The notes under the pieces were generated by a model, which did no database searches, was not told the DNA's origin, and saw nothing but the letters and a program-made list of their open reading frames with translations. The position numbers were made by a program, and so were the translations under genes. DNA of 64,000 bases from Spongiibacteraceae bacterium (GTDB taxonomy: Bacteria > Pseudomonadota > Gammaproteobacteria > Pseudomonadales > CAMLJR01), in assembly GCA_043786385.1 (NCBI GenBank), contig JAYVWC010000082.1:8208-72207 (forward strand), given 5' to 3'. How positions within the stretch are numbered: the first letter of the stretch is position 1; each line of letters begins with the position of its first letter. Below are positions 2,564-25,881 of the stretch, in pieces.

Positions 2564-3190
2564 TTAAGCGATTTTGCGTTTGCGTGTTGCGCCCGCCAAA
2601 CCGATCAGACTTGTGCCAAACAACCAAGCGGCAGCGGGAACCGGCACTGCCGCGACGTTAAACACACCCGCGTAGCTGCCACCGCTGGTGCCGGTGACGT
2701 TGCCTCTAACTTCGAGCACGTAATTACCTGCGCCCAACGCTGTGGTTTGGATCAGTGCGGTGGTGACGCCCGGCGCAATGGCTTGAGTCCAGCCATTGAC
2801 AATACCGCCATTAACAGGAAAGCCAAGTTGTGGCAACGTTGGTTGGTTGGCGCTATACAGCCGCACTTGCAAGTTATTAATACCGAAAATATCTGAAAGG
2901 TTAAATGTTGAAGTAATCGAGTTAGCTGACGCTGCCGGAATGCTGAAAATATAATCGTCATAAAAGCCGTATGACGATCCAGTGATCGGCGATGTCGGTG
3001 CGAAATAGGTATTGCCGTACGTGTAAGATGTCGATGGTGATAAGGTGTTGATGGTGGCGGTGCTGCCGGTGATACCGCTAGCAGTTTGCGATACTCCCAG
3101 TTGTAACGATGCTGCAAACGCCGATGTTGTGCTTCCTATTAATAGTGCGAAGCTGGTTAACACTGCGCGTGTGGATTTTGATTTGAGCAT
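2564..3190 (-). CDS. PEP-CTERM sorting-domain secreted protein
   Basis: Signal peptide MLKSKSTRAVLTSFALLIGSTTSAFA. The C-terminus VPVPAAAWLFGTSLIGLAGATRKRKIA has the PEP-like motif, a TM helix and a basic tail. The start was trimmed to the Met at 3190, which follows a GGAGGG Shine-Dalgarno. Confidence 0.8.
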   Translation of the reverse strand: MLKSKSTRAVLTSFALLIGSTTSAFAASLQLGVSQTASGITGSTATINTLSPSTSYTYGNTYFAPTSPITGSSYGFYDDYIFSIPAASANSITSTFNLSDIFGINNLQVRLYSANQPTLPQLGFPVNGGIVNGWTQAIAPGVTTALIQTTALGAGNYVLEVRGNVTGTSGGSYAGVFNVAAVPVPAAAWLFGTSLIGLAGATRKRKIA

Positions 3191-3458
3191 GATCCCTCCC
3201 CGAAATTTATGATGCTGCATTGATTTTGAATGCCCGAGAGCGCGGTCGCCAGTACGGAGCGATCGGCCTAGGGTAAGTTAGCGGGTGTTGGAAGGGCTAT
3301 CTATCAAGGTTTCGTGAATTTTCGCCCATGCAATCTGCATACATTTTGTGCGAAGAAGCGGCGTCGTGCGATTATTAGCGGCGCGGCAACGGCAAAGCGA
3401 ACTTGGCTTATAGGGTTTATTAAAATAATTACTGCGGCAATCGATTCGGCGATTGTAA

Positions 3459-4760
3459 TTAAGGGATAAAGCCGTCGATACCGATCAGCGGTTCCAAGCG
3501 ATAGTACGCGCGAATCGGTTCCGGTAATTCCAAATACTGCGCTAACGACATCGGTTTGACACCGCTCGCGACTCTCTCAAATGGGCCGTCGACATTATCG
3601 GCAGCAAAAACGTTGTAGACGGTATCGAGTTGCAACGCCGGCCCACCCACATACCAATGTGCGCCTTCGCGTTTTATTCGATACGCACCGTACGGCCGCG
3701 CCAACGGCTCGCCGATAAAAACGCCTTGGCCTGGCATCACTACACTTTTCCAATACGCTTCGAGCAATGTTTCGCCAGCCAAATAATGCTTCAGCAAAAT
3801 TTGTGGATTCGGAAATTTTGCGATAAACGCACACGGTTCGACGACGGTGCCGTAGCTGCCGGTGACGCCCGCTTCGAGCCAGCGGAGCGCACTCATTTGC
3901 TCGTGACCAGTTAATTGACCACCGTACGAAGTTAAATGATCGCCGATTGCACCGGGCAGATAATGATTGCTATCGAGCGCTGCAACCTGCACCGATCCCG
4001 TCACATAGAACATCACATCTTTGGCGTTTTCTAACGTTGGTGCTTGTTCGATATGCACTGGCAAGCGTGCGCCGAATTGTTGTAGCACGGCAGGAAATAA
4101 TTCTTTGCGTACGCTGCGCGCGACATCGCTGGTTTCGATCAAATACGCAGCGCCGTTCGGCAGGCTGTAATCGGCTTCGATACCGCGCTCGATCAACGCA
4201 AAGGCAAACGGTTTGCTGGTGGCGGCGAGCATCATCGTCGGGCGAATGCCGAGTTCGTCGAACGGTTTGTGCGTATTTGAATTCGCGTAGCTGCTGGTCG
4301 CGGTTATTTGGCAGCCTTCTGCGCAGTAACGCACATCGTAACCAAATGTGAAGGCGGCGGTGATCGACATGCAGCCAACGCGATACGGTGCCGTCCACGT
4401 TAACGCTAACGCTTGCACACGCGCCGGTAAGCGCGCATCGACGCTGCTTTTCAATACGGCAAACTCGCCGGGTTGCATAATGCTTTTGCCGGGTTTGAAG
4501 CGAATATGTACGATATTGTCGTCGGGAATTTTGCGTCGCTGTTTATAGTAGTTGCCGATCGCAATGCTGAGCGGATCGTCGTCGTTGACGATAATGCCGA
4601 GTTGTGCGGCGGTTAATGCATTCTCCGGCGGTAATACCGTCGGTGCCGCGCTGGCGCCGCTGACAAGCGTCAGCGCGAAAATAAGCGGAGTAAACCACCG
4701 CAGTAGGGTTCGAAAAAAAATTGGCATCACTCTAAGAGCGTATTGTGCGAAAAAGTTCAA
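3459..4760 (-). CDS. Secreted hypothetical protein (no family recognised with confidence)
   Basis: 433-aa ORF with a hydrophobic N-terminal signal (FTPLIFALTLVSGASAAP) and coherent codon usage. No overlapping alternative is convincing. An alternative start is the Met at 4727. Confidence 0.55.
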   Translation of the reverse strand: MNFFAQYALRVMPIFFRTLLRWFTPLIFALTLVSGASAAPTVLPPENALTAAQLGIIVNDDDPLSIAIGNYYKQRRKIPDDNIVHIRFKPGKSIMQPGEFAVLKSSVDARLPARVQALALTWTAPYRVGCMSITAAFTFGYDVRYCAEGCQITATSSYANSNTHKPFDELGIRPTMMLAATSKPFAFALIERGIEADYSLPNGAAYLIETSDVARSVRKELFPAVLQQFGARLPVHIEQAPTLENAKDVMFYVTGSVQVAALDSNHYLPGAIGDHLTSYGGQLTGHEQMSALRWLEAGVTGSYGTVVEPCAFIAKFPNPQILLKHYLAGETLLEAYWKSVVMPGQGVFIGEPLARPYGAYRIKREGAHWYVGGPALQLDTVYNVFAADNVDGPFERVASGVKPMSLAQYLELPEPIRAYYRLEPLIGIDGFIP

Positions 4761-4938: not shown

Positions 4939-5952
4939 ATGGCTATCAAAGTCGGCATTAATGGGTTGGGGCGGATCGGGCGCTTGGCATTGCGCGCGGC
5001 TTGGGATTGGCCGGAGCTGGAGTTTGTGCGCGTTAACGATCCGGCTGGCGACGCCGCAACGTTTGCGCATTTATTGAATTTTGATTCGGTGCACGGGCGT
5101 TGGACGCACGAGGCGAGTTGCGACGGCGATACGATACTGATCGATGGCAAGCGTCTTTTACTAAGCCACAACAAAACGATCGATGAAACCGATTGGTCGG
5201 CTTGCGATGTGGTGATCGAGGCCTCGGGAAAGTTCAAAAAAACTACCGTGCTCGATGCTTATTTACAACAGGGTGTTAAGCGCGTGGTGGTGACGGCGCC
5301 GATCAAAGAGCCGGGCATATTAAATGTCGTGATCGGTGTTAACGATCATTTATTCGACGCAGCTACGCATCGCATTGTCACCGCAGCTTCATGCACGACG
5401 AATTGTTTGGCGCCGGTGGTCAAAGTGATTCACGAAAATTTAATCATCAAGCACGGCAGTATCACGACGATTCACGATCTCACCAATACGCAAACGATTT
5501 TGGATGCACCGCATAAGGATTTGCGGCGTGCGCGCGCCTGCGGCATGAGTATGATTCCGACCACCACCGGTTCGGCTACCGCGATCACGGAAATTTTTCC
5601 GGAGTTGAAAGGGCGCTTGAATGGCCACGCGATTCGCGTTCCATTGGCCAACGCATCGCTGACCGATTGTGTGTTTGAAGTGCAGCGTGCTACCAGTGCT
5701 AGCGAAGTCAATGCCTTATTAAAAACTGCAGCGGCGGGCGCATTGCAGGGAATTTTGGGCTACGAAGAGCGGCCGTTGGTATCGATCGATTATCGCAGCG
5801 ATCCGCGTTCGAGTATTATCGATGCGTTATCGACGTTGGTGGTCGACGGCACTCACGTAAAAATTTATGCGTGGTACGACAACGAGTGGGGCTACGCCAA
5901 TCGCACCGTCGAGCTGGTTAAAAAAGTCGGCCTTGCCGATTGCGCGAACTAA
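4939..5952 (+). CDS. gap: Glyceraldehyde-3-phosphate dehydrogenase (type I), probably the ArsJ-associated paralogue
   Basis: The ORF has the NAD-binding motif INGLGRIGR, the catalytic [10 protein letters not shown] and WYDNEWGY. It is preceded by GGAG. Its stop overlaps or abuts the start of the downstream ArsJ-like MFS gene. Confidence 0.93.
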
Positions 5953-7178
5953 GCCGCATGTTTTCATCCTCCGCTGCGGTGCGGCAGTACGCCATCGTTA
6001 CCGCAAATTACTGGGCGTTCACGCTAACCGACGGCGCGTTGCGCATGTTGGTGGTACTGCACTTCCATCGCCTCGGTTACAGCCCGCTTAGCATTGCATT
6101 ACTGTTTATTTTTTACGAAATGTTTGGCGTGATCACGAATCTCGTAGGCGGCTGGTTTGGCGCGCGCTTCGGTTTGAATCGCACCATGCAAATCGGCTTA
6201 GCACTGCAAGTGCTTGCGCTACTGATGTTGACTGTGCCAGCCGCGCTATTAACGGTGCCGTGGGTTATGGCAGCGCAGGCGTTATCGGGTATCGCCAAAG
6301 ATTTAAATAAAATGAGCGCGAAAAGCGCAATCAAACAACTGGTGCCTACCGCAGCACAGAGCACGTTGTATCGGTGGGTGGCGCTGCTGACCGGTTCAAA
6401 AAATGCGCTGAAAGGCGTCGGATTTTTTTTAGGTGGAGCGCTGTTGACGCTACTCGGCTTTACCCAGTCCGTTGCGGTGATGGCAGCCGCATTGGCATTG
6501 GTCTGGCTGCTCGGCATGAAATATTTGCAGCGCGATTTTGGTGTCGCGAAAAATAAAATCAAATTCCGCGAAATTTTTTCAAAAAGTGCTGCAGTGAATG
6601 TGTTGTCCGCCGCGCGCTTCTTTTTATTTGGTGCGCGCGATGTGTGGTTTGTTGTCGCGTTGCCGGTCTATTTAAGCACTGCATTCGGTTGGGATTTCTG
6701 GTGGGTCGGTGGTTTTCTGGCGCTGTGGGTGATCGGTTACGGCATCGTGCAATCGTTGGCGCCGCAGATAACTGGCAACCGTGCCGACCGTTTGCCGGGC
6801 CGCGATGCAGTATTCGGTTGGGCGGCGCTGCTGGCGATTATTCCTGCCTGCATTGCCATCGGCATGCAACAAACGCTGTCGACCGAACCGATTTTGTTGG
6901 GTGGATTGCTATTGTTCGGTGTTGCATTTGCGATCAATTCATCGCTGCATAGCTATTTGATTGTCAGCTACGCCGATGCCGACGGTGTGGCGCTCGATGT
7001 GGGTTTCTATTATATGGCGAATGCGTTGGGGCGTTTGGTGGGCACTTTATTATCGGGGTGGGTATTCCAGCGTTACGGTTTGCCCGCATGCCTGTGGATT
7101 TCCGCAGTGATGATTGCTGCTGCCGCGTTGATTTCGCTGCGTTTGCCGATGGTGGTTAACAAAGAATCGCTGAATTAA
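5940..7178 (+). CDS. arsJ: MFS transporter resembling ArsJ (organoarsenical / 1-arseno-3-phosphoglycerate efflux permease)
   Basis: About 12 TM segments. The N-terminal segment [24 protein letters not shown] matches my memory of ArsJ. The gene is translationally coupled to the GAPDH gene (start at 5940 overlapping it, or Met at 5958). Confidence 0.65.
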
Positions 7179-7362: not shown

Positions 7363-7950
7363 TTAAGCCAAGCGGCGGCGCGCTATTCCCGCCAATCCAA
7401 GCAAACCCGACCCGAATAACCATGCAGCAGCAGGTACTGGTACTGAAGTGACTGAAGTATTGGTTAATAAAAAGGTTGCATCATTATAGTCCCAGTCGCC
7501 TCCATTGATTAGATCTTCAAAACCTATATACGTGCCAGCTGGGAGTATCGAGTCACCGTTATAGTTGTACGAATAAATGTGATGTGCGCCATCGCTGTTT
7601 AAGCTCGTATCTGAATACCATTGGTTGCTCGTATTCAATACATTTAACCGCAATATAAGCTCATCTCCGGCGTTAATGTTGTCAAAGCTGATGGAGTCAC
7701 CGTAGCTGGAAGTTTGGTTATTTAGGACTGAAGAGCCCACTTCGACACCGTTGACAAATAAGCTCAATGTGCTCGTGTAACCCGCCTCAGCGTCGACGAA
7801 ATAGGCAACGATGCTTCCAGAATTAGCTGCCGTAAAGCTGTATCCGTGGGGGTTTTCGCTACCGATGCCAGGGTACGCTAATGGGGCTGCATAGCTGCCG
7901 GCTGCGGCAAATGAAAGAGTAAGTGCACAGCTTAAATTTTTAATGTTCAT
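7363..7950 (-). CDS. PEP-CTERM sorting-domain secreted protein with a DUF4114-like module
   Basis: Signal peptide MNIKNLSCALTLSFAAAGSYA. It has GGDWDYNDATF (a D.DYND motif of the DUF4114 type) and the C-terminus VPVPAAAWLFGSGLLGLAGIARRRLA. Confidence 0.8.
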   Translation of the reverse strand: MNIKNLSCALTLSFAAAGSYAAPLAYPGIGSENPHGYSFTAANSGSIVAYFVDAEAGYTSTLSLFVNGVEVGSSVLNNQTSSYGDSISFDNINAGDELILRLNVLNTSNQWYSDTSLNSDGAHHIYSYNYNGDSILPAGTYIGFEDLINGGDWDYNDATFLLTNTSVTSVPVPAAAWLFGSGLLGLAGIARRRLA

Positions 7951-8506: not shown

Positions 8507-8858
8507 CATATAGATAGTAATAGGTTTGGCGTCAATTTGGTGCGCCGGCGCACTCGATAAGCGTTAGAGATTGTCAATTATTTCGACATTGCTAAGGGCG
8601 AGATGGCGGCTCACCGCCGAAATATTTGGCGTGTGTATTACGTTTTGTAGTGCCAAAAAATAATAATCCTGCAACACAACTCTGTCAGAGTCGCCCTCGC
8701 TTTAGAAAAGGATTTCGCCGTAATACGAGTTGTGGACGAGATGAGTGATGAAAATTTAAATAAACATTCATCGAATAGACATCGCGTGTATTTATTAAAT
8801 TGGTAAAAAACACTCAGTCAAAACGTTAGCAAATGATTTGTTGGCGATTTGATGAAAA

Positions 8859-8949
8859 GCGGAAATGCCAACCCCGTTGCGAGGCGGGTTCGGAAAGCCA
8901 CGGATCTTGTCGACACAGTATGTAGTCAAGACAGCCGGGTTGCCACCGT
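8859..8949 (+). promoter_or_regulatory. Candidate c-di-GMP-I (GEMM-I) riboswitch aptamer upstream of the PEP-CTERM gene at 9059
   Basis: A hairpin AACCC-C-GUU[GCGA]GGC-GGGUU is capped by a GNRA tetraloop. It is followed by CGGAAAGCC, then a second long hairpin (ACGG...CCG), then GGGUUGCC. This resembles Vc2-type elements GGCAAACC...[GAAA]...CGCAAAGCC...GGGGUUACC recalled from memory. It has not been verified with a covariance model. Confidence 0.4.
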
Positions 8950-9058
8950 GAAATTGGAAGCTGGTTGTTTGTGGGGTTCCGCAATATAGCTTCCCTGTTA
9001 GATGCGCATAAAACCTAACTGTAAGTTCACTGGCTAATTACTCTTGGAGAGATGGAAT

Positions 9059-9895
9059 ATGAAAAAATCACTTTTGGCTCTGGCATTGTCGATGGTTGCT
9101 GCTTCTGCTGCACATGCAGGCGTCGACGGTCGCGCGATAGCGAATGGCGGTCAATCGAGCAACTTCACCGGCGGCACTAGCGTTGCCGATAGCGTTCTGA
9201 ACGGTAAAGCTACAACCAACAGCGGCGGCGAATTCCTGTTGGCAGCATTTACCGACAGCAAATCGTATGCGCTGGACTTAGGTATTCGTTTCGACGCGAT
9301 TTACGACGGCGATATCGCCAACGGTAGCATTTGGAATCTCACCGGCTTCAATATGACCGGCGAAAACTTTATGTGGAACGTCGGCGCATTGTCCGGTCGC
9401 ACCACCTATCTCGCCCCCACCACTATCACTCGCAGCCGGTATGGCGTAATCAGCACCGTTGACTCGCTGAAAACCGCCGCGAACTTCAGCCCAACCAACA
9501 TCGGTGGCGCGATCACCAATATGACCGCGACGAACGGCGCTTTAAGTGGCGTCGATGCTGATTACAGCACCAACTTCGCCTATATCGCGAATACCAACAC
9601 TGACAATAATTATGTTGGCCATGGCGCTTATGGCAACAGCTACGGCGGTCAATTCAACTTCAACACCTCCGGCACCAACGGTTCGGTGCTCGAACTTCAG
9701 TTCATCGGTTTAAACGCTGCCGGCCAAACTCGGGTCACTCAGAGCCTTGGTACTTTAACGCTGAGCGGTACCACACTTACCTATAACAGCGTTGCCGCTC
9801 CTGAAGTGCCGGTGCCGGCTGCTGCTTGGCTGATGGGTTCGGCATTACTCGGTCTCGGTGGTGTGGCTCGCCGCCGCAACCGCAACAAGGCCTAA
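9059..9895 (+). CDS. PEP-CTERM sorting-domain secreted protein
   Basis: ATG at 9059 preceded by GGAGAG. Signal peptide MKKSLLALALSMVAASAAHA. The body is rich in Gly, Asn and Thr. C-terminus VPVPAAAWLMGSALLGLGGVARRRNRNKA. Confidence 0.8.
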   Translation: MKKSLLALALSMVAASAAHAGVDGRAIANGGQSSNFTGGTSVADSVLNGKATTNSGGEFLLAAFTDSKSYALDLGIRFDAIYDGDIANGSIWNLTGFNMTGENFMWNVGALSGRTTYLAPTTITRSRYGVISTVDSLKTAANFSPTNIGGAITNMTATNGALSGVDADYSTNFAYIANTNTDNNYVGHGAYGNSYGGQFNFNTSGTNGSVLELQFIGLNAAGQTRVTQSLGTLTLSGTTLTYNSVAAPEVPVPAAAWLMGSALLGLGGVARRRNRNKA

Positions 9896-9917: not shown

Positions 9918-9940
9918 CGCGCTGCATAGCAGCGCGTTTT
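9918..9940 (+). terminator. Rho-independent terminator-like hairpin
   Basis: CGCGCTGC-ata-GCAGCGCG followed by TTTT, 23 nt after the stop of the PEP-CTERM gene. Confidence 0.6.
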
Positions 9941-9988: not shown

Positions 9989-11650
9989 ATGAATATGAAC
10001 AAAATCGCTGCGGCCGTTCTCGCCGCTTCGTGCGCGGTCAGCGCCAACGCTGCCATTACCGATAAGCCCTGGTCCGTTGCACCTGCCGATCTGCTGGACG
10101 TATTCGTGTCCGGCGCAACTGCGCAAGATGTGGGATTCGCCTCTGCCTTTTCCGCAAAATGTACCTCTGTCGGCGGTCAGCTGGTGGTGTTCGCGCAATC
10201 TCAAGGCACGCTTGCTGTGCCGCATGCTTCTTACAGCGCCTATTTCTGCACCGAAAAAATGTCGTATACCGGCATGAGCGCGCCGAAATTCGTGCTGCTG
10301 CACAAACGTAGCGAAGGCGGCTCCGGCTGGGGTGTTGGCCCGGTTGCCGGCGCTTCCGCAATCGACCGTTTGGTTATTACCGATGCTGCTTGTACACCTG
10401 ACGCAGCGATCGCTACCAATGCCGCCATCACCGCAGTAGGCACCTTGGTTGCCGCCGACGGCGAGCAAAAATGCGTCGGCACCACCGCAGTGGTTCCGGA
10501 TGCCGGTATCTCCGATGTCGAGCCCAACTTGTTTAATGCTTCCGCCAACCTGATCGACGCGACCATCCTCGAGAACAGTCCGTTCTTCGGCGGCACTCAG
10601 ACAGCGCCCGGTGCGCCCGGCACTGTAGCGACCAACTTGGGCACGTTGGCCCCGGCGATTGCCACCAACGCGTTGACGTTCGGTATTCCGGTGACCTTGA
10701 ATCTGCGCAACGCGCTGCAAGACTTCCAAGGCATGACCTTCACGAGCGCAGCCGATCGCGATCTGGAAGCGAATGCACCGAGCTTGACCAAAACGCAGGT
10801 GGCGTCATTGTTCACCGGCACCATCAAGTCGTGGTCGCAGATCAAAAACGCAGCGGGCCAAGGTTTGAATACTTTTGGTGTGCAGTCCTCCGATCCGGCG
10901 CAGCGCGCCTACGTTTGTCGTCGCTCGCCGGGCTCCGGCACACAAACGCAGTTCAACGCGCTGTTCTTGAACTCTGGTTGCGCGAATGGTGCCGATATCC
11001 CGTTGCGCGATAACGACGAGTTTATCGATTTAGGTTCGAGCGGCGTTTACGAGCCGGGCAACTACATCGGTACCAGCCGTTTGAATGCTTTCCGCACTCC
11101 AACCGATTTGAAAGATGCAGTTGGCGCGCCGGCCGAAGGCCCGGTGATCCACGAGAACCAAGGTTCCGGCGATGTTGATGGTTGCCTGAACAATCTGCAG
11201 GATCAAACGGTGTGGGCAGTTGGCGTGCAGTCGACGGAGCGAGGCAGCGACAAATATCGCTTCGTGAAAATCGACGGTGTAGCGCCAACCACGGCTAACG
11301 TTGCAGCGAACAAGTACTGGGATTGGGCCGGCTCGACTCTGCAATACCGCGCAGCGCTGAGCGGCAGCTTCACCAACGACGACAAGCGTTTTGTTGAAGG
11401 TCTGGCTAAAGACACCAACACCCCGGCCAAACTCGCTGCCGCCAATACCTATAACATCCGTATGTACAAAGTATCGGGTGCCGGTACCGGTGCTGCGAAC
11501 CAGGTGGATGTCGGCTACTTAGCGACGCTCGAAAACGGTTACCTACCGACCATTCCGTTCAGCGAAGCCAGCCCAATCATGTCCTCGCAACGCAGCGGCA
11601 ATACCTGCAGAACCGCAACGATCCCCGGCAACACGCAAATGCTGCCGTAA
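9989..11650 (+). CDS. Secreted PstS-family (PBP_like_2) protein, LapA/DING-like candidate phosphate-binding protein or phosphatase
   Basis: Signal peptide MNMNKIAAAVLAASCAVSANA. It has PstS-like motifs GISDVEP and RRSPGSGTQTQFN. Length is 553 aa. GGAGA Shine-Dalgarno. Confidence 0.65.
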   Translation: MNMNKIAAAVLAASCAVSANAAITDKPWSVAPADLLDVFVSGATAQDVGFASAFSAKCTSVGGQLVVFAQSQGTLAVPHASYSAYFCTEKMSYTGMSAPKFVLLHKRSEGGSGWGVGPVAGASAIDRLVITDAACTPDAAIATNAAITAVGTLVAADGEQKCVGTTAVVPDAGISDVEPNLFNASANLIDATILENSPFFGGTQTAPGAPGTVATNLGTLAPAIATNALTFGIPVTLNLRNALQDFQGMTFTSAADRDLEANAPSLTKTQVASLFTGTIKSWSQIKNAAGQGLNTFGVQSSDPAQRAYVCRRSPGSGTQTQFNALFLNSGCANGADIPLRDNDEFIDLGSSGVYEPGNYIGTSRLNAFRTPTDLKDAVGAPAEGPVIHENQGSGDVDGCLNNLQDQTVWAVGVQSTERGSDKYRFVKIDGVAPTTANVAANKYWDWAGSTLQYRAALSGSFTNDDKRFVEGLAKDTNTPAKLAAANTYNIRMYKVSGAGTGAANQVDVGYLATLENGYLPTIPFSEASPIMSSQRSGNTCRTATIPGNTQMLP

Positions 11651-11715
11651 TACGATAGATCTGCCCGGTGCAATGCCGGGCTAGTACAGTAATGAATTAA
11701 GTACAGCAATAAATT

Positions 11716-11741
11716 AAGGTCGGCTTTAGCCGGCCTTTTTT
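11716..11741 (+). terminator. Rho-independent terminator
   Basis: AAGGTCGGC-ttta-GCCGGCCTT followed by a T-run (TTTTTTAT). Confidence 0.75.
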
Positions 11742-11805
11742 ATTTCTGCGCCGGCTAAATCGATAACCCGTGCGTTTTCTAAACCAGTTTAAAAAATCTT
11801 TCTTT

Positions 11806-11834
11806 GCGTCACGTAAATTTCACTTATTTGTCAT
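11806..11834 (+). promoter_or_regulatory. Pho-box-like array: three 7-bp direct repeats at 11-bp phasing
   Basis: The sequence reads GCGTCAC-gtaa-ATTTCAC-ttat-TTGTCAT. The PhoB half-site consensus is CTGTCAT with a 4-bp AT-rich spacer. The array lies ~190 nt upstream of tpsB. Confidence 0.35.
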
Positions 11835-11869
11835 ATCTAGCGATTACCTTGGCCGGGTTCTGTAAATAA

Positions 11870-11899
11870 CCGTCGCCTACAACGCCGTCGCCTACAACG
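11870..11899. repeat. Perfect 15-bp tandem duplication (CCGTCGCCTACAACG x2)
   Basis: Read directly from the sequence, in the tpsB upstream region. Confidence 0.9.
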
Positions 11900-12019
11900 C
11901 ACGGCTACGCGGGTGTGCTGCATTGGGTAATAAATGCGCGATTCGCTTTTTTGCACCGATTAAATTTGCTGCCGTTGATTTCGGGCTGCGCTGAATTGTT
12001 TTGATGGGAATAACGGCTG

Positions 12020-13687
12020 ATGGTTTTTGCCCGGCATAAAAAAAACGCGTTACAGACCGTGTTCGGCTGGTTTCATTTCGTTCTGGCCTTATCGGCGTTG
12101 ATGCTTGTTTGTGCCGCTTTCGCGAACGCCGATGAGGCTGAAAACGCAGGCGCTAGGACGGCCGCCAGCGATGCGCCGACCGAATCTGCCGCGGTTGAAA
12201 AACGCTTCGATATTTGGGAGTACCGCGTCGAAGGCAACACGCTGTTGGATTCGAGGCAAATTGAGGCGGCGGTATATCCCTACCTGGGGCCGCAGCGTCA
12301 CATCGCGGACGTCAACGAAGCTGCGAGCAATCTCGAGCGCGCATTCAAAGAGGCGGGTTACCCGGTTATTTTCGTCGAAGTGCCGGAGCAGGATGTGTTG
12401 GGCGGCATCGTTACTTTGCGAGTTGTACAGGGCACTGTTGCGCGGGTGCGCGTCAGCGAGGCGCGTTATTTCATGCCGAGCGAGATTCGCGCCGGCTTGC
12501 CGTCGATTGCAACCGGTGCACCACTCCACGTGCCGAGTATGCAGCGCGATATGAACGCTTTGAATGCGCGGTCGTCGGATCTGAAAGTGGCGCCGATATT
12601 GAGTCCGGGAAAAACGCCGGGGAGCGTCGATGTCGAGTTGAAAGTGAAGGACAGCTCGCCGTTGCACGGCGGTATCGAGCTCAATAATTATCATTCGGCG
12701 GATACTTCGCCGACGCGGCTTGGCGTTAGTTTGAGTTACGACAATCTTTGGCAGGAACAGCATAGCCTGGCGTTGCAGTATCAAGTGGCGCCAGAGAATA
12801 CCGATGAAGTTAACGTGTGGGTTGCGACGTATATGTTGCCGCTGCAAGACAGCGACAAGCGCCTGGCATTTTATGCACTCGATTCGAAAAGCGATGTTGC
12901 CACGGTCGGCGTAAACAATGTTATCGGCACGGGCAGTATTTACGGTGCGCGGATGATTATGCCGCTGCAATCGTCGCGCCGTGCAATCCGTTCGTTGACG
13001 CTCGGTTTCGATTACAAGGATTTTCAGGAGATCATTCGTCTCGATCCGCAGACCAGCGACACAACACCGATCAGTTACGGCATGTGGTCCATGCAATACG
13101 CTGTGCTGTTGCCCAGCAGCGCGGCCAGCACCAGGCTCAGTATCGCCACCAATTTTGGTATTCGTGGCTTGGTCAACTCCGATTCCGAATTTGCGTTCAA
13201 ACGTTATAACGGCAAGCCGAACTTCGCGTACCTAAGCGCCAATTTAGATCGCGTCGATTATCTGGCTCACGATTGGCAAATACACAGCGCCGGCGAAGTG
13301 CAGATAGCGAACTCGCCGCTGGTCAACAACGAGCAGTTTTCGGCGGGCGGGCCGAGCTCGGTGCGCGGTTATTATCAATCGCAGCGGCTCGGCGATAACG
13401 GCTTGCGGCTAGGCGTGGAGATGCTAACGCCGTCGCTGTGGAGCCGCGGCCAGTGGCTCAGCGAAACCCGCTTGCTGGGATTTATCGAAGGGGCTCATCT
13501 CGAAGTCGTCGACGCGCTGCCGCAGCAGGACGAGAGTTTCGATCTGTTGGGCGCGGGGCTAGGTCTGCGACTGAAAAATCCATTGGGTTTCGACGTCAGT
13601 TTCGATTGGGGATATCCGCTGCAAGACAGCGGTGATGTGCAAAAGGGCGAAGCGCAATATTACGTCGGTTTGCAATACGCGTTCTAG
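12020..13687 (+). CDS. Two-partner secretion outer-membrane transporter (TpsB; ShlB/FhaC/HecB family)
   Basis: 555 aa with a signal sequence. It has the POTRA-type segment FDIWEYRVEGNTLL...IEAAVYPYLG and a beta-rich C-terminal barrel ending YYVGLQYAF (terminal Phe). It sits immediately upstream of a TPS-domain giant protein. Confidence 0.9.
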   Translation: MVFARHKKNALQTVFGWFHFVLALSALMLVCAAFANADEAENAGARTAASDAPTESAAVEKRFDIWEYRVEGNTLLDSRQIEAAVYPYLGPQRHIADVNEAASNLERAFKEAGYPVIFVEVPEQDVLGGIVTLRVVQGTVARVRVSEARYFMPSEIRAGLPSIATGAPLHVPSMQRDMNALNARSSDLKVAPILSPGKTPGSVDVELKVKDSSPLHGGIELNNYHSADTSPTRLGVSLSYDNLWQEQHSLALQYQVAPENTDEVNVWVATYMLPLQDSDKRLAFYALDSKSDVATVGVNNVIGTGSIYGARMIMPLQSSRRAIRSLTLGFDYKDFQEIIRLDPQTSDTTPISYGMWSMQYAVLLPSSAASTRLSIATNFGIRGLVNSDSEFAFKRYNGKPNFAYLSANLDRVDYLAHDWQIHSAGEVQIANSPLVNNEQFSAGGPSSVRGYYQSQRLGDNGLRLGVEMLTPSLWSRGQWLSETRLLGFIEGAHLEVVDALPQQDESFDLLGAGLGLRLKNPLGFDVSFDWGYPLQDSGDVQKGEAQYYVGLQYAF

Positions 13688-13698
13688 TTATCTGGGAA

Positions 13699-16600
13699 AT
13701 GGTCATGGCTTTGCTGATAAAAATTCGTAACTCACGCGGCAAAATCGGTGCAGCTTGGATCAGTTGCGCAGCTTTTACGTGGAGCGGTCTTAGCTTGCCA
13801 GCGTTCGCCGAGCTGCCGGTGCCGAGAGCCAATCTCAGCAGCGGTGGCGGCAACTATCAAGTCAGTAGCGGCGGGGCCGTCGGCACTATCAATCAAAAAA
13901 GCGAACGCGAAATTTTCAATTGGGAGAGCTTTAATGTCGGCGTCGGTAACGAAGTCGTATTCAAGCAGCCGAGCGCCAGCGCGGTGGCGCTCAACCGTAT
14001 TTTCGATAACGCGCCGAGCGCTATTCTCGGCAAGATCAGCGCCAACGGTTCGATCTATTTAATCAATCGCAACGGCATCGTGTTCGGCGACGGCATCCAC
14101 GGTGGGCAGGTCGATGTGAATGGTCGGTTCTTAGCGACTACGTTGAACATCAACGATACGCAGTTTTTGAACTCGAATTTATTTCAGGCCATCAACAATG
14201 GCGAGGCGGCGTTGGTTGGACATACCGACGATCAAGGTAATGCGCTAACCTCCGGCGCCGTCAAGATAGACAACGGCTTCACGATTAAAACCGGCGAGGG
14301 CGGCGATATTTTAATTTTCGCGCCCGAGGTGATGAATAAGGGCAATCTACTAACGCCGGGCGGCAACGCGGTGCTAGCGGCCAGCCACGATCGTGTATAT
14401 CTAACGGCAAATACCGCGGAGGAAACCGGCAGTAATTTAGGTGGCATTCTGGTTGAAGTCGATACCGGCGGCGATGTGAATAACCTCGGCAAAATTATCG
14501 CCGAGCGCGGTAGCGTGACCTTGCTGGGGCTCGCCGTAAATCAGAACGGTTTGATTCGCGCCACCACCACCGTCGATAACAATGGTGCAATTCGCCTGCT
14601 GGCGCGCGACAAAGCTACCCATGTCACCGCCAGTCAGGCGGAGTTCGCCGCACTGGGTTTCGATGGCCCTAAAGAGTTGCCCGCCAATCTGGCGCGCGCC
14701 AGTCGCACCGGCATTGTCACGATCGGTGCTGGTAGCACCACTGAGGTGTTACCCGATGCCGCAGTCACTAAGGTCGCTGATGCGCAACCGCAACAGCTAT
14801 CGCTGGTCGATGTTATGGGTAGCACCGTTGCCATCGAAGGCGCTGCCACTGTGCGCGCCACCGGCGGCGAGGTACGCATCAACGCCACTCAGTATCCCGC
14901 CACCCTGCAGGATATTCCTGGCAGCCAAAATGCCAGCCGCATGTATATCGATACGAGCGCGCTGATCGATGTATCCGGTACGCGCGATGTTGAGTTGCCA
15001 ATGTCGCGTAACGTCGTCGAGGCTGAACTTCGCGGTACTGAGTTAGCGGATGCGCCGCTGCAACGCAATGGTGTTTTGCGTGGCGAAACCGTCCTGGTCG
15101 ATGCGCGCAAGGGTACCAAGCTTGCCAATATCGAAGGTTATCTGGCGTTGAACGAGCGCACGGTCGGCGAACGTCTCGCCAAGGGCGGCACGATCAAGTT
15201 GCGTTCGGAAGGGGATTTAATCGTCAATCCAGGCGCCAAACTGGATATCTCTGGCGGCTCATTACGCTACCAGGCGGGCTGGTTGAAAACCACTAAGCTC
15301 CTTCAAAACGGCAAGGTGGTGGATATCTCGGACGCCGATCCCGATCAGCCGGTCGATGCGATTCTCGGTAAACGCTCGGTTACCGACGCGCGTTGGGGCG
15401 TCGCGAAGGAATTCGGTGCCGACAGTATTTTTAATATGGGTACCTACGTTGATTCGTTTACCGAAGGCACGGCCGCCGGCGCAATTACCATCAGTGCCAG
15501 CAGCACGGTATTTAATGGTGATATCGCCGCGCACGCGAGTAGCGGGCCGTATCAGCGCACACCCGACAAGCAGGTATTGGCCGGCAGTCTGTCGATCGAT
15601 ACGCGCGGTATCGCTCAGGATGTTGTCTTCACCCCGTTGCAGAGCAAGGCCCGTCTGAAGCTTGATGATCCTATCGCTGTGCTCGACGATTCCGGCCAAC
15701 TGCAGCCGCCGGTATTGGCAATCGCAGATGGCTTGGTGCGCGATAGCGGTCTGAGGCAGCTGAGTGTGACCACCAACGGCCGCGTCGTCCAACAGGCCGA
15801 TAGTCGCCTCGAATTGGCGGCCGGCAATAATAGCAAGCTGGCTGTGAGTGCCAGCGGCGTCGATATCGCCGGCCAGATTCGCGTCGCCGGCGGTACCATC
15901 GATCTGAAAACAAAATCGACGGCGTTCGTCAAGCCCATTCCGGACGATGACGAGACCAATTATGTATTAGCGGTGCGCAACGGTGCGCTGCTCGATGTAT
16001 CCGGTCTGTGGGTCAACGACAATCCGCTGCTGACACCAGACTTAACCACGCCGGTGGTCACCAATGGCGGCCATATCGCACTCGGCGCGCGCGGCGATGT
16101 CGATATCGAGGCCGGCAGCATACTGAACGCCGATGCCGGCGCTTACCGCGACAGCGCTTTGTCCTTTCGCGGCGGCGACGGTGGCACGATCGAACTTGCC
16201 AGCTACCGTCTCGGCGGCTCGGCGCTAACATTGACCGGCGATTATCACGCGTTCGGGTTTGGTGACAGCGGTAAGCTCGCGATCGAGGCCAACGGTATTT
16301 ATATCGGCAGCGATCGCCCAGCGACACTGCCGGCGACGACGTTGGCATTCGCGCCCGAATTTTTCGCCACGCAGGGCTTCGGCAGCTACGCGTTGACCGC
16401 CAATCTTTACGATGCCGAAATCGAGGCCGGCACTACGCTGCGGCTGCAACAGCGTAACTTTGCGCCTATCGGCGCCGGCGCGTTGGCTAGCGGCGACGTG
16501 GTCGATACGGGTTATCTCGGCCTGCTGCCGAGCGGCAGCTCGTTGAGTCTGATCGCGACTGTAGAGACCGTTGCAGCCGCGACCCGCAAGGCTGCCGATT

Positions 16601-19600
16601 TCAGTCTGAGCGCACTCCAGTCGGTGTTGGTGCCGGCGCTCGGGCAGACGATCAACGATCTGCCGATCGCGGAATTGCGGATCGGCAAAGGCGCGTTGAT
16701 CGCCGCAGACCCCGGTGCTGCGCTGGCGTTTAACGCCGGCCAGCGCATCGTTTTCGACGGTCGCATCGAGGCGCCCGGCGGTAGCGTAACCATGACGATT
16801 TCGCCGGACCAGGACGATGTCCGGCGGGGCTCCAGCCAGGGTATCTGGCTGCTCGACGAGGCTGCGATTTCGGTCGCGGCCGCCTTTGTCCCGCAGCAGA
16901 ATGAGCTCGGCACACTCGATGGCCGATTATTCGATGCCGGTTCGATTATGCTCGATGCGCGCGGCGGCTATGTGGTCGGCCAGACCGGCTCGCTGCTCGA
17001 CGTAAGCGGCGCGGCCCAGACGATCGACCGCGTGCAGACCAGCCCGCTGTTCGGCACTCGCATCGATTCGATCGAGCACGCCCTTGCCGCCGGCGCGATC
17101 GATATTCGCGCCGAGCAGGGGATTTTCTTCGATAGCACGTTGCGCACCGAGCGCGCTGCACTCGCCAATGCCGAGGGCGCGTCACTGGCGTTGCGCCTGA
17201 ATGCCAACGCCAGCGGGCGCAACTCGCCCGGCGGCTTCGATCTGGCGCTGCAACTGGTCGATGTCGCGCCCACGGTGACGGTCGGACCGCTGGACGGCAT
17301 CGCTGCTGCAGATCGCGGGCGCGCGGTGATCGGCGCGCAAAAAATTAACGCAGCGCAACTCGATACGCTCACGCTCGAAGTGCAGAACTGGATGAGTGTG
17401 GGGCCTAATACTCTACAGGCCTCCGGACGCCTACAGGTGCTCGACAATGTGCAATTACGCGCACAAAAAAGTATCGCGCTCGCCACTACCAATCTCGATC
17501 TGCAAGGGCGCGATTTGCAGGTGCAAGCGCCGTTTCTGCAGCTTGGTTTAGCCAATGCTGATGCGCGTCTGCAGCAAAGCGATAGCGGCGCGTTGGCACA
17601 GCTAGGGCAAAGCACGGGTCTGTTGGCATTGCAGGGCAAGCTGATCGATCTGGTCGGCAATCTAGCGGTCGGCGGGGCGCGACTCTTGAACCTGCAGGCT
17701 TGCGACGATATCCGCGCTCGCTCGGTGGCATCGTCAAACCCCAGTCAAATTCTGGCGCCGGCCACGTTAACCACCGATGCCGATATTCTGCTGCAGGCGC
17801 GGCAACTGTACCCGACCAGCCTAGCCGACTACCGTTTCGACAACAGCGCCGGCGGCGCTGCCGCCAGCCTCCGTATCGTCGGAGCGCCGGGCGAACGGCA
17901 GCCGGTATTGTCGGCCGGCGGCAAGCTGGGTTTCACCACCGGAATTTTTCGCAATGAGGGTGCGATTATGGCACCGCTCGGGCAGATTGCCATCGACGCT
18001 TCGCAACAAGCAACGCTCGCCGGCGGCAGCCTAACCAGCGTCTCCGCAGATGGTCTGACGATTCCGCTCGGGCGGGTTCTTGGCGGCGATCTGGACTGGA
18101 TCTACCCGCTTAATGGCCAGGCCAGTCTGACGATGCTGGCGGAGAAACGCGTCGAAATCGACGCACCGGCAGTCGCCCTCGAACAGGGCGCCGCTATCGA
18201 TATTTCCGGCGGCGGTAAGGTGTACGCCACGGAATTTACCCCGGGGCCGGGCGGCTCGAAAGATGTGTTAGCGACGGAAAATGCCGGCGCCGCGTTTGCC
18301 ATTATGCCGGCACTGAGCAGCGGCATCGCCGCGTACGATGCGCTGGAGATGCACGGCGTAGATTTAACCGCGGGCAATATAGTCACCTTGCGCGGGGTAC
18401 CTGGCCTCGCCGATGGCAACTACACGGTATTGCCGGCGCGTTACGCATTGCTGCCGGGCGCCTATCTAGTTACGCCGCGCAGCGACAGCAGCTACCTTGC
18501 ACCCGGCCAGGTACTGCCGCGCTTCGATGGCTCGTGGTTGGTGGCCGGCAAAATGGGCGTGGCCGGCACCGCGATTACCGATTCGAACTGGAGCGGCTTT
18601 GTGGTCGCGCCGCGCAGCAGCGTGATAACGCGCAGCGAATACACCATTGCCGATGCCGATACCTATTTCGCCACTAAAAGCCTGACGCCGAAAGATGCGG
18701 GCGCGGTATTGGTATCCGCCACCGACAGTCTGGAATTGGCCGGCACGATTGCCTCCGGCAGCAGCACTGGCCTAGGTGGCCGACTCGATATCAGCGCCGA
18801 TCGGCTTGCAGTGGTAGCGCAGACCGGTACCGAGACAGGCTTCATCGAGCTGCTCGATAGCGCGTTGCAAGGGCTCGGCGTCGACAGCCTGCTGCTCGGC
18901 GGCCGCCGCAGCGTCGAAGGTACCGACATGGTCATCGAGACCACCGCGCAGACAGTAAAAATGGGTGCCGGTGCTTCGCTGAGCGGGCCCGAGATCATTC
19001 TGGCCGCCACCGATTCGGTAACTCTGGCGCGCGATTCCACCCTGGCCGGCACCGGCCGCAAAACCCAACAAGCGGAGGCGTTAAGTGTCGGGCGCGACGG
19101 CGCGCTGGTGCGCGTATCGTCGAGCAGGCAAACCGATTTTACGCGCACCGCTGCGACCGGTGCCACGCCGGGCGAATTGCAAATCGAGCAGGGCGCAACG
19201 CTGCGCGCCGATGCCGCGGTATTGCTCGATGCCAGCGGTTCGGCGGGTTTTGCCGGCAATCTCGATCTGCGCGGTGGCTCGCTGTCGCTGAATGCGGGTC
19301 GCATTGCACTCGGCGGGGATACCGCGATCGACGATGCCTTGCATTTTTCCGGCGCCACGCTGGCCGCGCTCGATATAGACGAGTTGCGTATCAATAGCCG
19401 CAGCACCATCGATTTCTACGGTGCTGTAGACATCGGTTTGCAACGGCTGGAGCTGGCGGGGCAGAGCTTTCGCAATCGCGCCGGAGCGGCGATCGATGTG
19501 TTGTTCAAAGTGGCCGCGCAGGCCACCGTAAAAGGTGTCGATAGTACGGCGAGTACGGCGGCGGGGGCGCCGGGTGGCACCTTCTCGATCGCTGCCGGCG

Positions 19601-24000: not shown

Positions 24001-24072
24001 AGAGCCGGCGTGGGTAAATAAATTTTTGTAAACCGGTGACTTTTTACTGGTGGTTTCTTACAGGTGAGAAAG

Positions 24073-25881
24073 ATGCGCAAATTATTTTTTGTATTACTGC
24101 TGATGGTATCGAGTTTATCGCACGCGTGGTGGAACGATAAGTGGCCGAATCGATTGCCGATAACGGTCGATACCTCTGCTGCCGGTGCCGGGGTCAGCGA
24201 AAATAATAGCGATGTTACCGTGCTGGTGAAATTGCACGCCGGCAATTTTCAGGATTTCTTTTCTGTAAAAGAAGATTTATCCGATCTGCGTTTTATCGGC
24301 GACGATGATAAAACGCCGCTGAAATTTCACGTCGAAAATTTTGATTTGGTGAATCAACTGCTGTACGTGTGGGTGAAAGTGCCGCAGGTAGCTGGCGGCA
24401 TCAACACCGCTCGCCTGTGGATGTACTACGGCAATGCCGAGGTGCCTGGAGCCCAGGATAGTGGCGGCAGCTACGATAACAATACCGCGTTGGTGTACCA
24501 CTTTAACGCCGGTGAAAAAATTCCGCAGGATGCCGGCGTAAATGGCAATCACGCGACCTCGGCCAGCGCCTCAGTGATCGGCGCGGCGATTGCTTCGGGC
24601 TTGAAATTCGAGAGCGGTAATGTCGTATCGATCGACGATAAACCTACGCTGGCGGTGAAGGCCGCGCAGGGTGCGACGATCAGCTTTTGGCTGAAGCCTA
24701 CCAAACTGGAAGGTAATACCTGGTTGTTGCAGCGCAGCGGCGGCAACAGTGAGCTGGTTATCGGTCTCGAACAAAATAATTTGTACGCGCGTTTAAAGCT
24801 CGCGAATGGCCAATTGGTGGAAACCAATAAATCGCCGAGCGTTCGCGCGGATGCCTGGCAATTGGTCACCGCGATTATCGCGCCGAATAGATTGACGTTA
24901 CTCGTCGACGGTAAAGAAGTGGCGACAGCGGCCATTCAGTTGCAGGATTTCGGCGGCGCGATTACGTTGGGCGATGGTGCCCAAGGCGGTCATCCGTTTG
25001 TCGGCGAACTCGATGAGTTCCGGATCGATACGGTGGCGCGCAGCCCGAGCTGGGTGGCTTTGCAAATCAACAATCAAGGTATTCAAGACAAACTGTTGAG
25101 TGTACAAGAGGCCGAACAGTTAGGGTCTGGCGGTAAAGAATCTGGCTTCTGGTCAGTGATCATCGGCAGCCAGGATGAGGTTGGCTGGGCCATTCTAGGC
25201 GTGCTGATGATAATGGCCGTGATCAGTTGGATCGTGATGGGCGGCAAGGCGATTTATGTCGGTCGTGTACAAAAAGATAACAAGCACTTCCTCGATCAAT
25301 ACCGCGAGCTCGGCGATCAAGACCCGGCGCAGTTGGATCGCGACGATACCGCTGAAGATAAAGAGTTGGAAAAGTCGCCGATCACGCAAGCGCTGTTTGG
25401 TAATCATGATCACTTCCAAAGCTCGCCGATTTATCGTGTTTATCATCGCGCGGTGAAGGAAACGCAGGCGCGCTTGGGTAATTCGGTAGGCGCGCGGGCC
25501 AGCGGCTTATCCAATGCGGCAATCGCGTCGATTCGCGCGACGCTCGATACGCAAATGGTGTTTGAAATGCAGCGTCTCAATTCGCAGATGGTGTTGCTAA
25601 CGATCGCGGTTGCGGGCGGACCATTCATCGGTCTGTTCGGCACTGTGGTCGGCGTGATGATCGTATTCGCGGCGATTGCCGCTTCGGGGGATGTCAATAT
25701 CAACGCAATCGCTCCGGGTGTAGCGGCAGCGCTGGCGGCCACCGTGATGGGGCTGTTGGTCGCGATCCCAGCATTGTTTGGTTACAACTATTTAATGTCG
25801 AAAATAAAAGCGACGACCGCCGATATGCGTGTATTTGCCGATGAGTTTGTCACACGGCTTGCTGAATATTACGGGAAATAA
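24073..25881 (+). CDS. MotA/TolQ/ExbB proton-channel protein with an N-terminal periplasmic DUF2341 + LamG-like (concanavalin-type) extension
   Basis: Signal peptide MRKLFFVLLLMVSSLSHA, then WWNDKWPNRLPITVDTS (DUF2341-type). A LamG-like stretch follows (ISFWLKPTKLEGNTWLLQRSG...LLVDGKEV...FVGELDEFRIDTVARS). TM helices and the ExbB core are GGPFIGLFGTVVGVMIVFAAIA...AAALAATVMGLLVAIPALFGYNYL. The ATG at 24073 was preferred over the GTG at 24064. Confidence 0.85.
   Translation: MRKLFFVLLLMVSSLSHAWWNDKWPNRLPITVDTSAAGAGVSENNSDVTVLVKLHAGNFQDFFSVKEDLSDLRFIGDDDKTPLKFHVENFDLVNQLLYVWVKVPQVAGGINTARLWMYYGNAEVPGAQDSGGSYDNNTALVYHFNAGEKIPQDAGVNGNHATSASASVIGAAIASGLKFESGNVVSIDDKPTLAVKAAQGATISFWLKPTKLEGNTWLLQRSGGNSELVIGLEQNNLYARLKLANGQLVETNKSPSVRADAWQLVTAIIAPNRLTLLVDGKEVATAAIQLQDFGGAITLGDGAQGGHPFVGELDEFRIDTVARSPSWVALQINNQGIQDKLLSVQEAEQLGSGGKESGFWSVIIGSQDEVGWAILGVLMIMAVISWIVMGGKAIYVGRVQKDNKHFLDQYRELGDQDPAQLDRDDTAEDKELEKSPITQALFGNHDHFQSSPIYRVYHRAVKETQARLGNSVGARASGLSNAAIASIRATLDTQMVFEMQRLNSQMVLLTIAVAGGPFIGLFGTVVGVMIVFAAIAASGDVNINAIAPGVAAALAATVMGLLVAIPALFGYNYLMSKIKATTADMRVFADEFVTRLAEYYGK

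Follow-up and report, generated by a model that had tools for sequence, protein, structure and literature searches.

The window analysed here is a stretch of 64,000 nucleotides (nt) from a Spongiibacteraceae bacterium (assembly GCA_043786385.1, contig JAYVWC010000082.1, positions 8,208 to 72,207 of the forward strand). Its segment 8857-8949, judged by the match to the family model, is a canonical class I cyclic di-GMP (c-di-GMP) riboswitch aptamer (c-di-GMP-I or GEMM-I), and ligand binding is predicted for it. This aptamer would lie in the 5' leader, of about 240 nt, of an operon; the first gene of the operon (gene A), probably the one with the strongest expression, encodes a predicted PepA-like exosortase-sorted surface protein of the VPLPA-CTERM type. 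Taken as a whole, the leader is very probably best explained by a canonical c-di-GMP-I aptamer that precedes a PepA-like operon and would act as an ON switch through a long-range helix (LR), formed between the 3' edge of the aptamer and a second segment shortly upstream of the Shine-Dalgarno sequence.

An aptamer of this class in the leader of a PEP-CTERM protein gene had been proposed in an initial annotation of the window, made from the letters alone, and a search with the covariance model RF01051 had been set beforehand as its test. That search retrieves RF01051 (c-di-GMP-I) at 8857-8947 of the plus strand with a score of 49.7 bits, against a gathering score of 35; the match covers model positions 1 to 87 of 87 and has an E-value of 1e-6, calculated for the whole window, both strands, and the 4227 families of Rfam 15. 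It is one of three matches in the window that exceed the gathering score. The parts of the aptamer are as follows, the first being defined by the full-model match together with an RNAalifold consensus of its relatives and the others by the model alignment and the sequence.

8857..8949 (+): c-di-GMP-I (GEMM-I) aptamer
8859-8862 with 8946-8949 (+): helix P1, G8859-G8862 with C8946-U8949 (GCGG/CCGU), 4 base pairs (bp)
8868-8893 (+): helix P2
8879-8882 (+): GCGA tetraloop capping P2
8894-8896 (+): AAA linker
8896-8941 (+): helix P3
8942-8949 (+): 3' segment GCC-A-CCGU

All the blocks that had been read by eye are present at the coordinates given for them, namely hairpin 1 with its GCGA loop (8870-8890), the junction CGGAAAGCC (8891-8899), hairpin 2 (8901-8937), the 3' segment GGGUUGCCACCGU (8937-8949), and a possible basal pairing of GCGG (8859-8862) with CCGU (8946-8949). 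The outer A-U pairs that had been drawn in hairpin 1 (A8870/A8871 with U8889/U8890) have to be given up: they fall into an internal loop of the family model and are not conserved, because A8871 is replaced by C in all relatives. Instead, the base of P2 consists of C8868/C8869 paired with G8892/G8893, followed by an AAC/UUC internal loop and the helix CCCGUU/GGCGGG.

Alignment to the consensus of the Rfam model, on which the residue numbers of the Vc2 aptamer were placed by the analysis's own alignment, predicts three ligand contacts, G8867, A8894, and C8943, which correspond to Vc2 G20, A47, and C92 and are all canonical; G8867 is unpaired and located immediately 5' of P2. In Vc2, these three nucleotides contact c-di-GMP (PMC4744006, PMC5888326). 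The interhelical pair C44-G83 of Vc2, which has been called universally conserved (PMC4744006), is likewise represented by a canonical pair, C8891-G8934, C8891 belonging to the UUC bulge of P2 and G8934 to the AG bulge of P3. Among GEMM RNAs, the AAA linker shows almost no variation (PMC1950547). GEMM members with GYRA-type loops carry no tetraloop receptor in the second hairpin, the receptor being expected only with a GAAA loop (PMC1950547), and the GCGA loop of the window, with no receptor in P3, fits this description. The first-hairpin loop is GCGA or GUGA in all 28 distinct related aptamers.

RNAalifold predicts 20 pairs for these 28 aptamers. Six of the pairs show compensatory changes, with both sides altered, mainly in distal P3 and at the top of P2; P2 and the junction served as the search pattern, so that their invariance is uninformative. 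The first pair of P1 changes from G.U to A-U in relatives. The P3 of the window contains an A8904.C8932 mismatch, where relatives have G-C, G.U, or A-U, and distal P3 has a low posterior probability in the RF01051 alignment.

The aptamer is kept before homologous genes. Gene A has no close relative in a one-genome-per-species collection (best identity, 36%); its three full-length homologues there (loci L001 to L003) have an RF01051 match 125 to 260 nt before the gene, and no such match is found in the other 37 loci scanned, which contain partial protein matches, 36 of them to the sorting signal alone. A protein search retrieves closer relatives, with 58 to 78% identity, as well as more distant ones. 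The riboswitch is present, with scores from 45.6 to 55 bits, in L084, L085, L088 to L091, and L093 from this search and in L055, which comes from a DNA scan; the partial homologue L004 has none. Thus, it precedes 11 of 11 full-length homologues with upstream DNA (32 to 78% protein identity; 41.5 to 55 bits). These relatives are mostly annotated as metagenome-assembled genomes (MAGs) of Spongiibacteraceae or Gammaproteobacteria.

The link between this aptamer subtype and PEP-CTERM genes is seen also from the RNA side. A metagenome scan seeded on the 5' half of the aptamer alone (GAGGCGGGTTCGGAAAGCCNCGG) yields 33 loci, one of which is a chance match in GC-rich coding DNA. The first downstream open reading frame (ORF), where complete, encodes a signal-peptide protein with a PEP-CTERM-like end in 25 of 25 loci, with the qualification that many of the metagenome loci are near-duplicates and form about 10 distinct groups. 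Of these proteins, 24 have 250 to 300 amino acids (aa), and the one in L072 has only 80 aa. Their sorting signals take the form VPVPxAVWLFGSAL...RRRK or VPEADSYAMMLAGLGLVG...RRRK. A hidden Markov model check of seven distinct proteins finds PEP-CTERM-type profiles in six, two of them above curated cut-offs. Two loci, L067 (2027-2118 and 3423-3511) and L069 (1531-1619 and 2924-3015), contain two c-di-GMP-I aptamers 1.4 kb apart; the one found by the pattern scan precedes a PEP-CTERM gene, and the pair may resemble the cluster of four in Methylophaga nitratireducenticrescens GP59.

An association between c-di-GMP riboswitches and PEP-CTERM genes is already noted in the literature and is not new: M. 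nitratireducenticrescens GP59 has seven c-di-GMP riboswitches, four of which precede PEP-CTERM/VPLPA-CTERM genes (PMC12530212). The literature search found no work that joins the exosortase with a c-di-GMP riboswitch, and co-mentions of GEMM and PEP-CTERM were incidental. The riboswitch of the window can be called by any Rfam-based annotation and, as an element, is no surprise to riboswitch specialists; what is added here is the systematic link of an aptamer subtype to PEP-CTERM genes, a conserved cassette, and LR as the likely switching element. In this arrangement, the biofilm second messenger c-di-GMP would be linked directly, and in a testable way, to the production of a PEP-CTERM (exosortase-sorted) matrix protein, in a protein class whose regulation is otherwise described mainly via PrsK/PrsR and RpoN. 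Since the association is systematic (25 of 25 ORFs and every homologue), such leaders could be used as markers or reporters of c-di-GMP-controlled floc and matrix formation in uncultured gammaproteobacteria.

Downstream of the aptamer, the leader contains the following elements; "12 leaders" refers here and below to the window plus 11 homologue leaders.

8942..8952 (+): 5' strand of LR, GCCA-cc-GUGAA, from the minimum-free-energy fold and conservation in 12 of 12 leaders
8956..8994 (+): hairpin H1, GGAAGCU/AGCUUCC with an inner hairpin, from the minimum-free-energy fold
8997..9019 (+): hairpin H2, GUUAG...CUAAC, the second hairpin enclosed by LR, from the fold
9026..9034 (+): 3' strand of LR, UUCAC-UGGC, from the minimum-free-energy fold and conservation in 12 of 12 leaders
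9035-9045 (+): U-rich linker UAAUUACUCUU, sequence 3' of LR
9046-9051 (+): Shine-Dalgarno sequence GGAGAG, from the sequence
9059-9061 (+): ATG start codon, from the sequence

LR consists of two helices separated by a CC bulge, one formed by GCCA (8942-8945) and UGGC (9031-9034), the other by GUGAA (8948-8952) and UUCAC (9026-9030). The 5' strand belongs to the 3' tail of the aptamer, GCCACCGUGAAA(G), which is nearly invariant in the 12 leaders; the second block, (CU)UUCAC-U(U)GGC, is kept in all 12, located 7 to 11 nt before the Shine-Dalgarno sequence. The lower helix has four of four pairs in every leader and the upper helix has four to seven. For the seventh pair, the distant group has G-C, the window has U-A, and two more leaders have U.G or G.U; all remaining changes are wobbles. 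The 61 to 100 nt inside LR are unrelated between the two groups of leaders. Without constraints, minimum-free-energy folding gives LR in 9 of the 12 leaders, the window included; one or both parts of LR are replaced by other pairings in L084, L085, and L089. The LR fold is more favorable than the fold with P1 forced by 4.6 to 9 kcal/mol.

LR takes up the equivalent of C92 and half of the 3' strand of P1 and is therefore incompatible with the ligand-bound aptamer. That the two exclude each other can be read directly from the sequence; LR would be a better candidate for the switch than H1. Two leaders show variants in the ligand pocket, L084 (1294-1383), with U at the equivalent of C92 (GUC for GCC), and L091 (2394-2485), with GCU. 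G.U wobbles preserve LR in both; the variants may be genuine differences in affinity or may result from errors in assembly.

The 7-bp stem of H1 (GGAAGCT at 8956-8962 with AGCTTCC at 8988-8994) had been suggested in the initial annotation as the expression platform. The stem itself is a real, conserved hairpin: every related leader has a hairpin at this position with a differing sequence, e.g., CUGAAAUUUUUGC/GCAAAAAAUUCAG in L002 and GGCUGCUGA/UCAGCGUCC in L089, which argues for structural conservation. The assigned role finds no such support. As a terminator or an anti-Shine-Dalgarno element, H1 was rejected, as it is followed by no U tract, overlaps neither the aptamer nor the Shine-Dalgarno sequence, and forms in both modelled states; with neither the overlap nor the U tract, there is no evidence for H1 as a switching element.

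The equivalents of H2 in relatives are terminator-like, with an AUUUU(U)CG tail, in L002, L003, L055, and L090, not in L001 and L093. This terminator-like hairpin of the distant group (GCAGCAC...GCGUUGCAUUUUCG) was considered as a regulated terminator and rejected, since it has no overlap with the aptamer and its tail is not U-rich in L001 and L093. Compared to the distant group, the window has a deletion of about 18 nt at the site of this hairpin, and a terminator scan of the window calls no compact terminator in the stretch from the aptamer to the start codon. The tract that follows LR reads UUUUUUU in L001 and L093, UUUUAC in L084 and L089, UUUUAUUA in L090, and UUCUAUUA in L002, L003, and L055; at least 5 of the 8 nt after LR are U in 8 of the 12 leaders, with seven U in two. 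The start is conserved in relatives as ATGAAAAAATC (MKKS).

The identity of the aptamer, its canonical binding-site nucleotides, and its conserved position are documented above; the mechanism described next is inferred. In the ligand-free state, the 3' edge of the aptamer (8942-8952), which holds the cytosine that would pair with one guanine of c-di-GMP, would be sequestered by pairing with 9026-9034. LR would then close a branched structure that holds H1 and H2 and ends at the U-rich tract just before the ribosome-binding site. Binding of c-di-GMP would lock P1 and the three-helix junction and block LR. If LR and the U tract form an attenuator or terminator, its relief by c-di-GMP would make the leader an ON switch, with more surface protein produced at high c-di-GMP. 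Partial read-through past the hairpin at 9918-9936, downstream of gene A, would also raise the expression of the next gene (gene B), which encodes a PBP-like protein. If this is true, a surface module comprising a PepA-like exosortase cargo, a PBP-like protein, and a giant adhesin of the two-partner-secretion type would be under direct RNA-level control by c-di-GMP. A precedent for this direction is found in M. nitratireducenticrescens GP59, where three of the four riboswitches before PEP-CTERM genes have a higher transcript level in biofilm (PMC12530212).

The direction of control is less secure than the aptamer. An ON switch is favored at roughly even chances: LR is followed by a U-rich tract, but its stem closes a branched loop. 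Specifically, the proposal that LR acts as an unusual branched attenuator, with its 5' strand taken from the ligand pocket, 61 to 100 nt of pre-folded hairpins enclosed, and a U tract next to the ribosome-binding site, is tentative and should be viewed with some doubt. Several observations weigh against the ON-switch explanation as a whole. A terminator stem around a branched loop of 61 to 100 nt is unusual, and the linker of the window, UAAUUACUCUU, is poor, with four U in its first 8 nt (the tracts of L085 and L091 are also poor). Covariation in LR is thin, with one pair altered on both sides, and the support comes mainly from the complementarity of two conserved blocks. Folding of co-transcriptional prefixes is noisy for P1. 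The accessibility models support no translational mechanism, so that the predicted direction rests on the attenuator reading, and at least one characterized c-di-GMP-I element, Bc1, binds its ligand with no change in expression (PMC11218506). Sequestration of the Shine-Dalgarno sequence was considered as a possible output and rejected: in the 12 leaders, the free and the P1-forced ensembles give the same unpaired probability for positions -15 to +3. Given this equal accessibility of the Shine-Dalgarno sequence and the start in both states, occlusion of the ribosome-binding site is not favored.

The same accessibility models bear on an OFF switch, which appears unlikely, although it is the strongest of the alternatives. 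In such a switch, c-di-GMP would lock P1, and the released UUCACUGGC (9026-9034) would pair with the initiation region and lower translation. The tail of the aptamer, GUGAAA, does resemble the start region, AUGAAA, and the P1-forced fold of the window pairs UUCACU with AG-A-UGGA at 9050-9057; in L088, UUUUUUCA is perfectly complementary to UGAAAAAA at the start codon. Forcing P1 lowers the accessibility of the Shine-Dalgarno sequence from 0.32 to 0.05 in L003 and from 0.27 to 0.15 in L001, and one of the four Methylophaga PEP-CTERM riboswitch transcripts is higher in planktonic cells (PMC12530212). However, in most leaders this pairing amounts to just four or five pairs, rich in A-U, and L084 lacks it, the mean accessibility of the region from -15 to +3 is equal in both states in 12 of 12 leaders, with L088 changing in the opposite direction, and the U-rich tract after the helix would be left unexplained.

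It is improbable that the aptamer binds c-di-GMP with no control of expression in this organism, as a relic or as an element masked by other parts of a long leader. Bc1 provides the precedent for such a silent element (PMC11218506), and the window has lost about 18 nt at the terminator-like hairpin of the distant group and lacks the good U tract of L001 and L093. Nevertheless, the aptamer, both strands of LR, H1, and the context of the Shine-Dalgarno sequence are kept in the four closest relatives (58 to 78% protein identity), whereas the neighboring leader sequence has diverged, which argues for selection on the whole leader.

A variant aptamer with another ligand, either 3'3'-cyclic GMP-AMP (3'3'-cGAMP; GEMM-Ib) or the unknown ligand of the c-di-GMP-I-GGC variant, is very improbable. 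In a permissive scan, the GGC model RF03167 scores narrowly higher than RF01051 (51.3 versus 49.7 bits). This score is below the RF03167 gathering score of 59, and the consensus G of that family (GACGCGAAGCC) at the A47 position is a mismatch to A8894 of the window (CGGAAAGCC); these two points lead to rejection of the GGC variant in favor of the canonical type. The cGAMP-selective members of GEMM are reportedly marked by an A at the equivalent of G20, which is G8867 in the window. Chance resemblance with no RNA function, for which nothing speaks beyond the A8904.C8932 mismatch and the low posterior probability of distal P3, is effectively refuted by the E-value of 1e-6 over the window, the presence of the element before 11 homologous genes elsewhere (41.5 to 55 bits), and the compensatory pair changes.

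The aptamer shares with Vc2, from the tfoY leader of Vibrio cholerae, whose structure is solved, the three-helix junction fold, the G20/A47/C92 contacts, the C44-G83 pair, and the AAA linker. In Vc2, however, a GAAA tetraloop docks into a receptor in the second hairpin, whereas the window has a GCGA loop and a plain second hairpin, as in the GYRA subtype (PMC1950547); the internal loop is AAA/GAC in Vc2 and AAC/UUC in the window, P1 of the window has only 4 bp, and the regulated gene differs. As in other GEMM switches, the 3' edge of the aptamer would be contested by a downstream segment, whose pairing the bound ligand would prevent (PMC1950547). The ON switch Vc1 raises the expression of gbpA with c-di-GMP (PMC4744006). 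In contrast to compact ON switches of the GEMM/Vc1 type, the window has its competing strand at a distance of about 75 nt, two or three hairpins make up the branched loop that the helix closes, and the U tract is weak. A long expression platform with multiple hairpins after a class I aptamer is also found in Bc1 of Bacillus thuringiensis (PMC11218506). Two compact canonical terminators are present in Bc1, which does not respond in vivo (PMC11218506); the window has no compact terminator before the start codon.

The closest parallel in terms of cargo is the group Ribo4 to Ribo7 of M. nitratireducenticrescens GP59, which belongs to the same riboswitch class, precedes the same type of genes (PEP-CTERM/VPLPA-CTERM), and also comes from a gammaproteobacterium (PMC12530212). 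The riboswitch-associated genes of GP59 are located near exopolysaccharide genes, and their transcripts are mostly higher in biofilm (PMC12530212). Ribo4 to Ribo7 are listed from the genome annotation, with no leader anatomy or mechanism, and are likened to the window by description, not by sequence; the cassette of the window (PepA-like, PBP-like, TpsB, and TpsA) is not described for GP59 (PMC12530212).

This cassette consists of the following features.

9059..9895 (+): gene A, 278-aa secreted protein with a VPLPA-CTERM (PEP-CTERM-type) sorting signal, from TIGR03370
9918..9940 (+): intergenic GC hairpin CGCGCUGC-AUA-GCAGCGCG then UUUU (stem 9918-9936), from a terminator scan
9989..11650 (+): gene B, 553-aa secreted PBP-like (PstS-like) protein, from a marginal match to PF12849 (27.5 versus a cut-off of 27)
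12020-13687 (+): TpsB, from the ShlB and POTRA_2 domains
13699-24000 (+): TpsA-like protein of 3433 aa, from size and position only

Gene A starts 110 nt downstream of the aptamer. Its product has a signal-peptide-like N terminus and ends with VPVPAAAWLMGSALLGLGGVARRR; the predicted PEP-CTERM nature of this protein is borne out by a match to the VPLPA-CTERM domain TIGR03370 (31.8 bits versus a cut-off of 25.35) at residues 250-273, which comprise the motif, a transmembrane helix, and an Arg cluster. No Pfam domain is found in it. It aligns end to end with the profile of PepA from Zoogloea and Aquincola (NF033554, floc_PepA; PMC9850573), residues 4-274 matching profile positions 5-261 of 261, with a score of 19.4 bits. 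NF033554 matches 17 of the 24 members of the gene A family (best E-value, 5e-12), all of them below the curated cut-off of 80 bits. By these scores, the gene A product is a predicted distant relative of PepA, not a member of NF033554. Expression of PepA is RpoN-dependent, and the paper that describes it mentions no riboswitch (PMC9850573). An AlphaFold2 model of the gene A product, built with 24 homologues, has a mean confidence (pLDDT) of 73 and is rich in β-strands; the PDB yields no fold match to this model with an E-value below 0.5 and no match to the sequence profile. No exosortase is found among the ORFs scanned, all from the 64-kb window.

A strong GC hairpin is found directly 3' of gene A in all 11 loci examined. 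The hairpin at 9918-9940 is probably a partial terminator or a 3' stabilizer, and hairpins in this place are typical of operons in which the first product is abundant and read-through is reduced. Homologues of gene B (31 to 88% identity) follow gene A in eight of eight loci searched with tblastn (L001, L002, L003, L085, L089, L090, L091, and L093). Read-through into the PstS-like gene, suggested in the initial annotation, is thus plausible, as genes A and B are always adjacent, but probably only partial because of the GC hairpin between them, which would place gene B, and perhaps the two-partner-secretion genes, under weaker control. For gene B, no relative with a solved structure is found. 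TpsB follows gene B in L001 to L003, L085, L089, L090, L091, and L093. A second RF01051 aptamer (5651-5733; 43.5 bits) is located between gene B and TpsB in L001, a Spongiibacteraceae MAG; being directly before TpsB, it would give the two-partner-secretion genes of that genome their own c-di-GMP sensor. In the window, no second aptamer is found at E-values up to 0.5, either before TpsB, in the equivalent position (11651-12019), or elsewhere. Directly after the TpsA-like gene, 24064-25881 (+) encodes an unusual fusion of DUF2341 and LamG (concanavalin-like) domains, followed by a MotA/TolQ/ExbB proton-channel domain.

The gene order of the locus is conserved. It begins with two minus-strand genes, the first of the TIGR03790 family and the second for a protein of about 200 aa; about 900 nt of non-coding DNA separate these from gene A, which is followed by gene B (500 to 555 aa) and TpsB. 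The TIGR03790-family protein of the window (3459-4760, minus strand; 433 aa; 231 bits) is 59 to 80% identical to the products of the cassette-flanking gene in seven other loci. In the window, the approximately 200-aa product is a DUF4114/VPLPA-CTERM protein; L089 and L091 have confirmed homologues. In the window alone, a gapdh gene (4939-5952) and the organoarsenical efflux gene arsJ (5940-7178), both on the plus strand, are inserted between the TIGR03790-family gene and the cassette. Nearby genes for two more VPLPA-CTERM proteins are located at 2564-3220 (an FxDxF-family protein) and 7363-7950 (the DUF4114 protein), both on the minus strand. Neither gene has a riboswitch, so that one of the three PEP-CTERM-type genes in this region would be under RNA-level control by c-di-GMP. 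The GGDEF-EAL sensor mentioned in the initial annotation is indeed encoded in the window, as a CHASE8-PAS-GGDEF-EAL protein (56261-58717, minus strand). Its gene is 47 kb from the riboswitch, and nothing ties it specifically to this leader.

Upstream of the aptamer, conservation points to one further element.

8802..8810 (+): putative extended -10 promoter element TGGTAAAAA, from conservation, not called by a consensus scan

The sequence GGTAAAAAACA is conserved in the four closest leaders, and L084 and L085 have a -35-like hexamer, TTGCGA or TTGTGA, 16 nt upstream of the -10-like element. A consensus promoter scan gave no call for 8802-8810; if used, this element would put the transcript start about 40 nt before the aptamer, near 8817-8820. 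Strongly conserved non-coding blocks, common to L084, L085, and L089, occupy 8636-8790 of the window, 70 to 220 nt upstream of the aptamer, and include a direct repeat of GTAWTACGWKTTGT, at about 8638 and about 8721, plus the block CGAGATGAGTGAAGAAAATTTAAATAAACATTCATCGAA. They are likely to be promoter-upstream or transcription-factor sites, in which case the leader would not be the sole level of control.

Elsewhere in the window, 40205-40294 (+) encodes a tRNA-Ser with the anticodon TGA, and a sub-threshold match of the small RNA sX4 to the same place (35.4 versus 70) is probably a tRNA artefact. A TwoAYGGAY RNA (RF01731) is found at 36469-36543 (+) with 46.8 bits, against a gathering score of 43, as a partial match that covers model positions 43-122 of 168.

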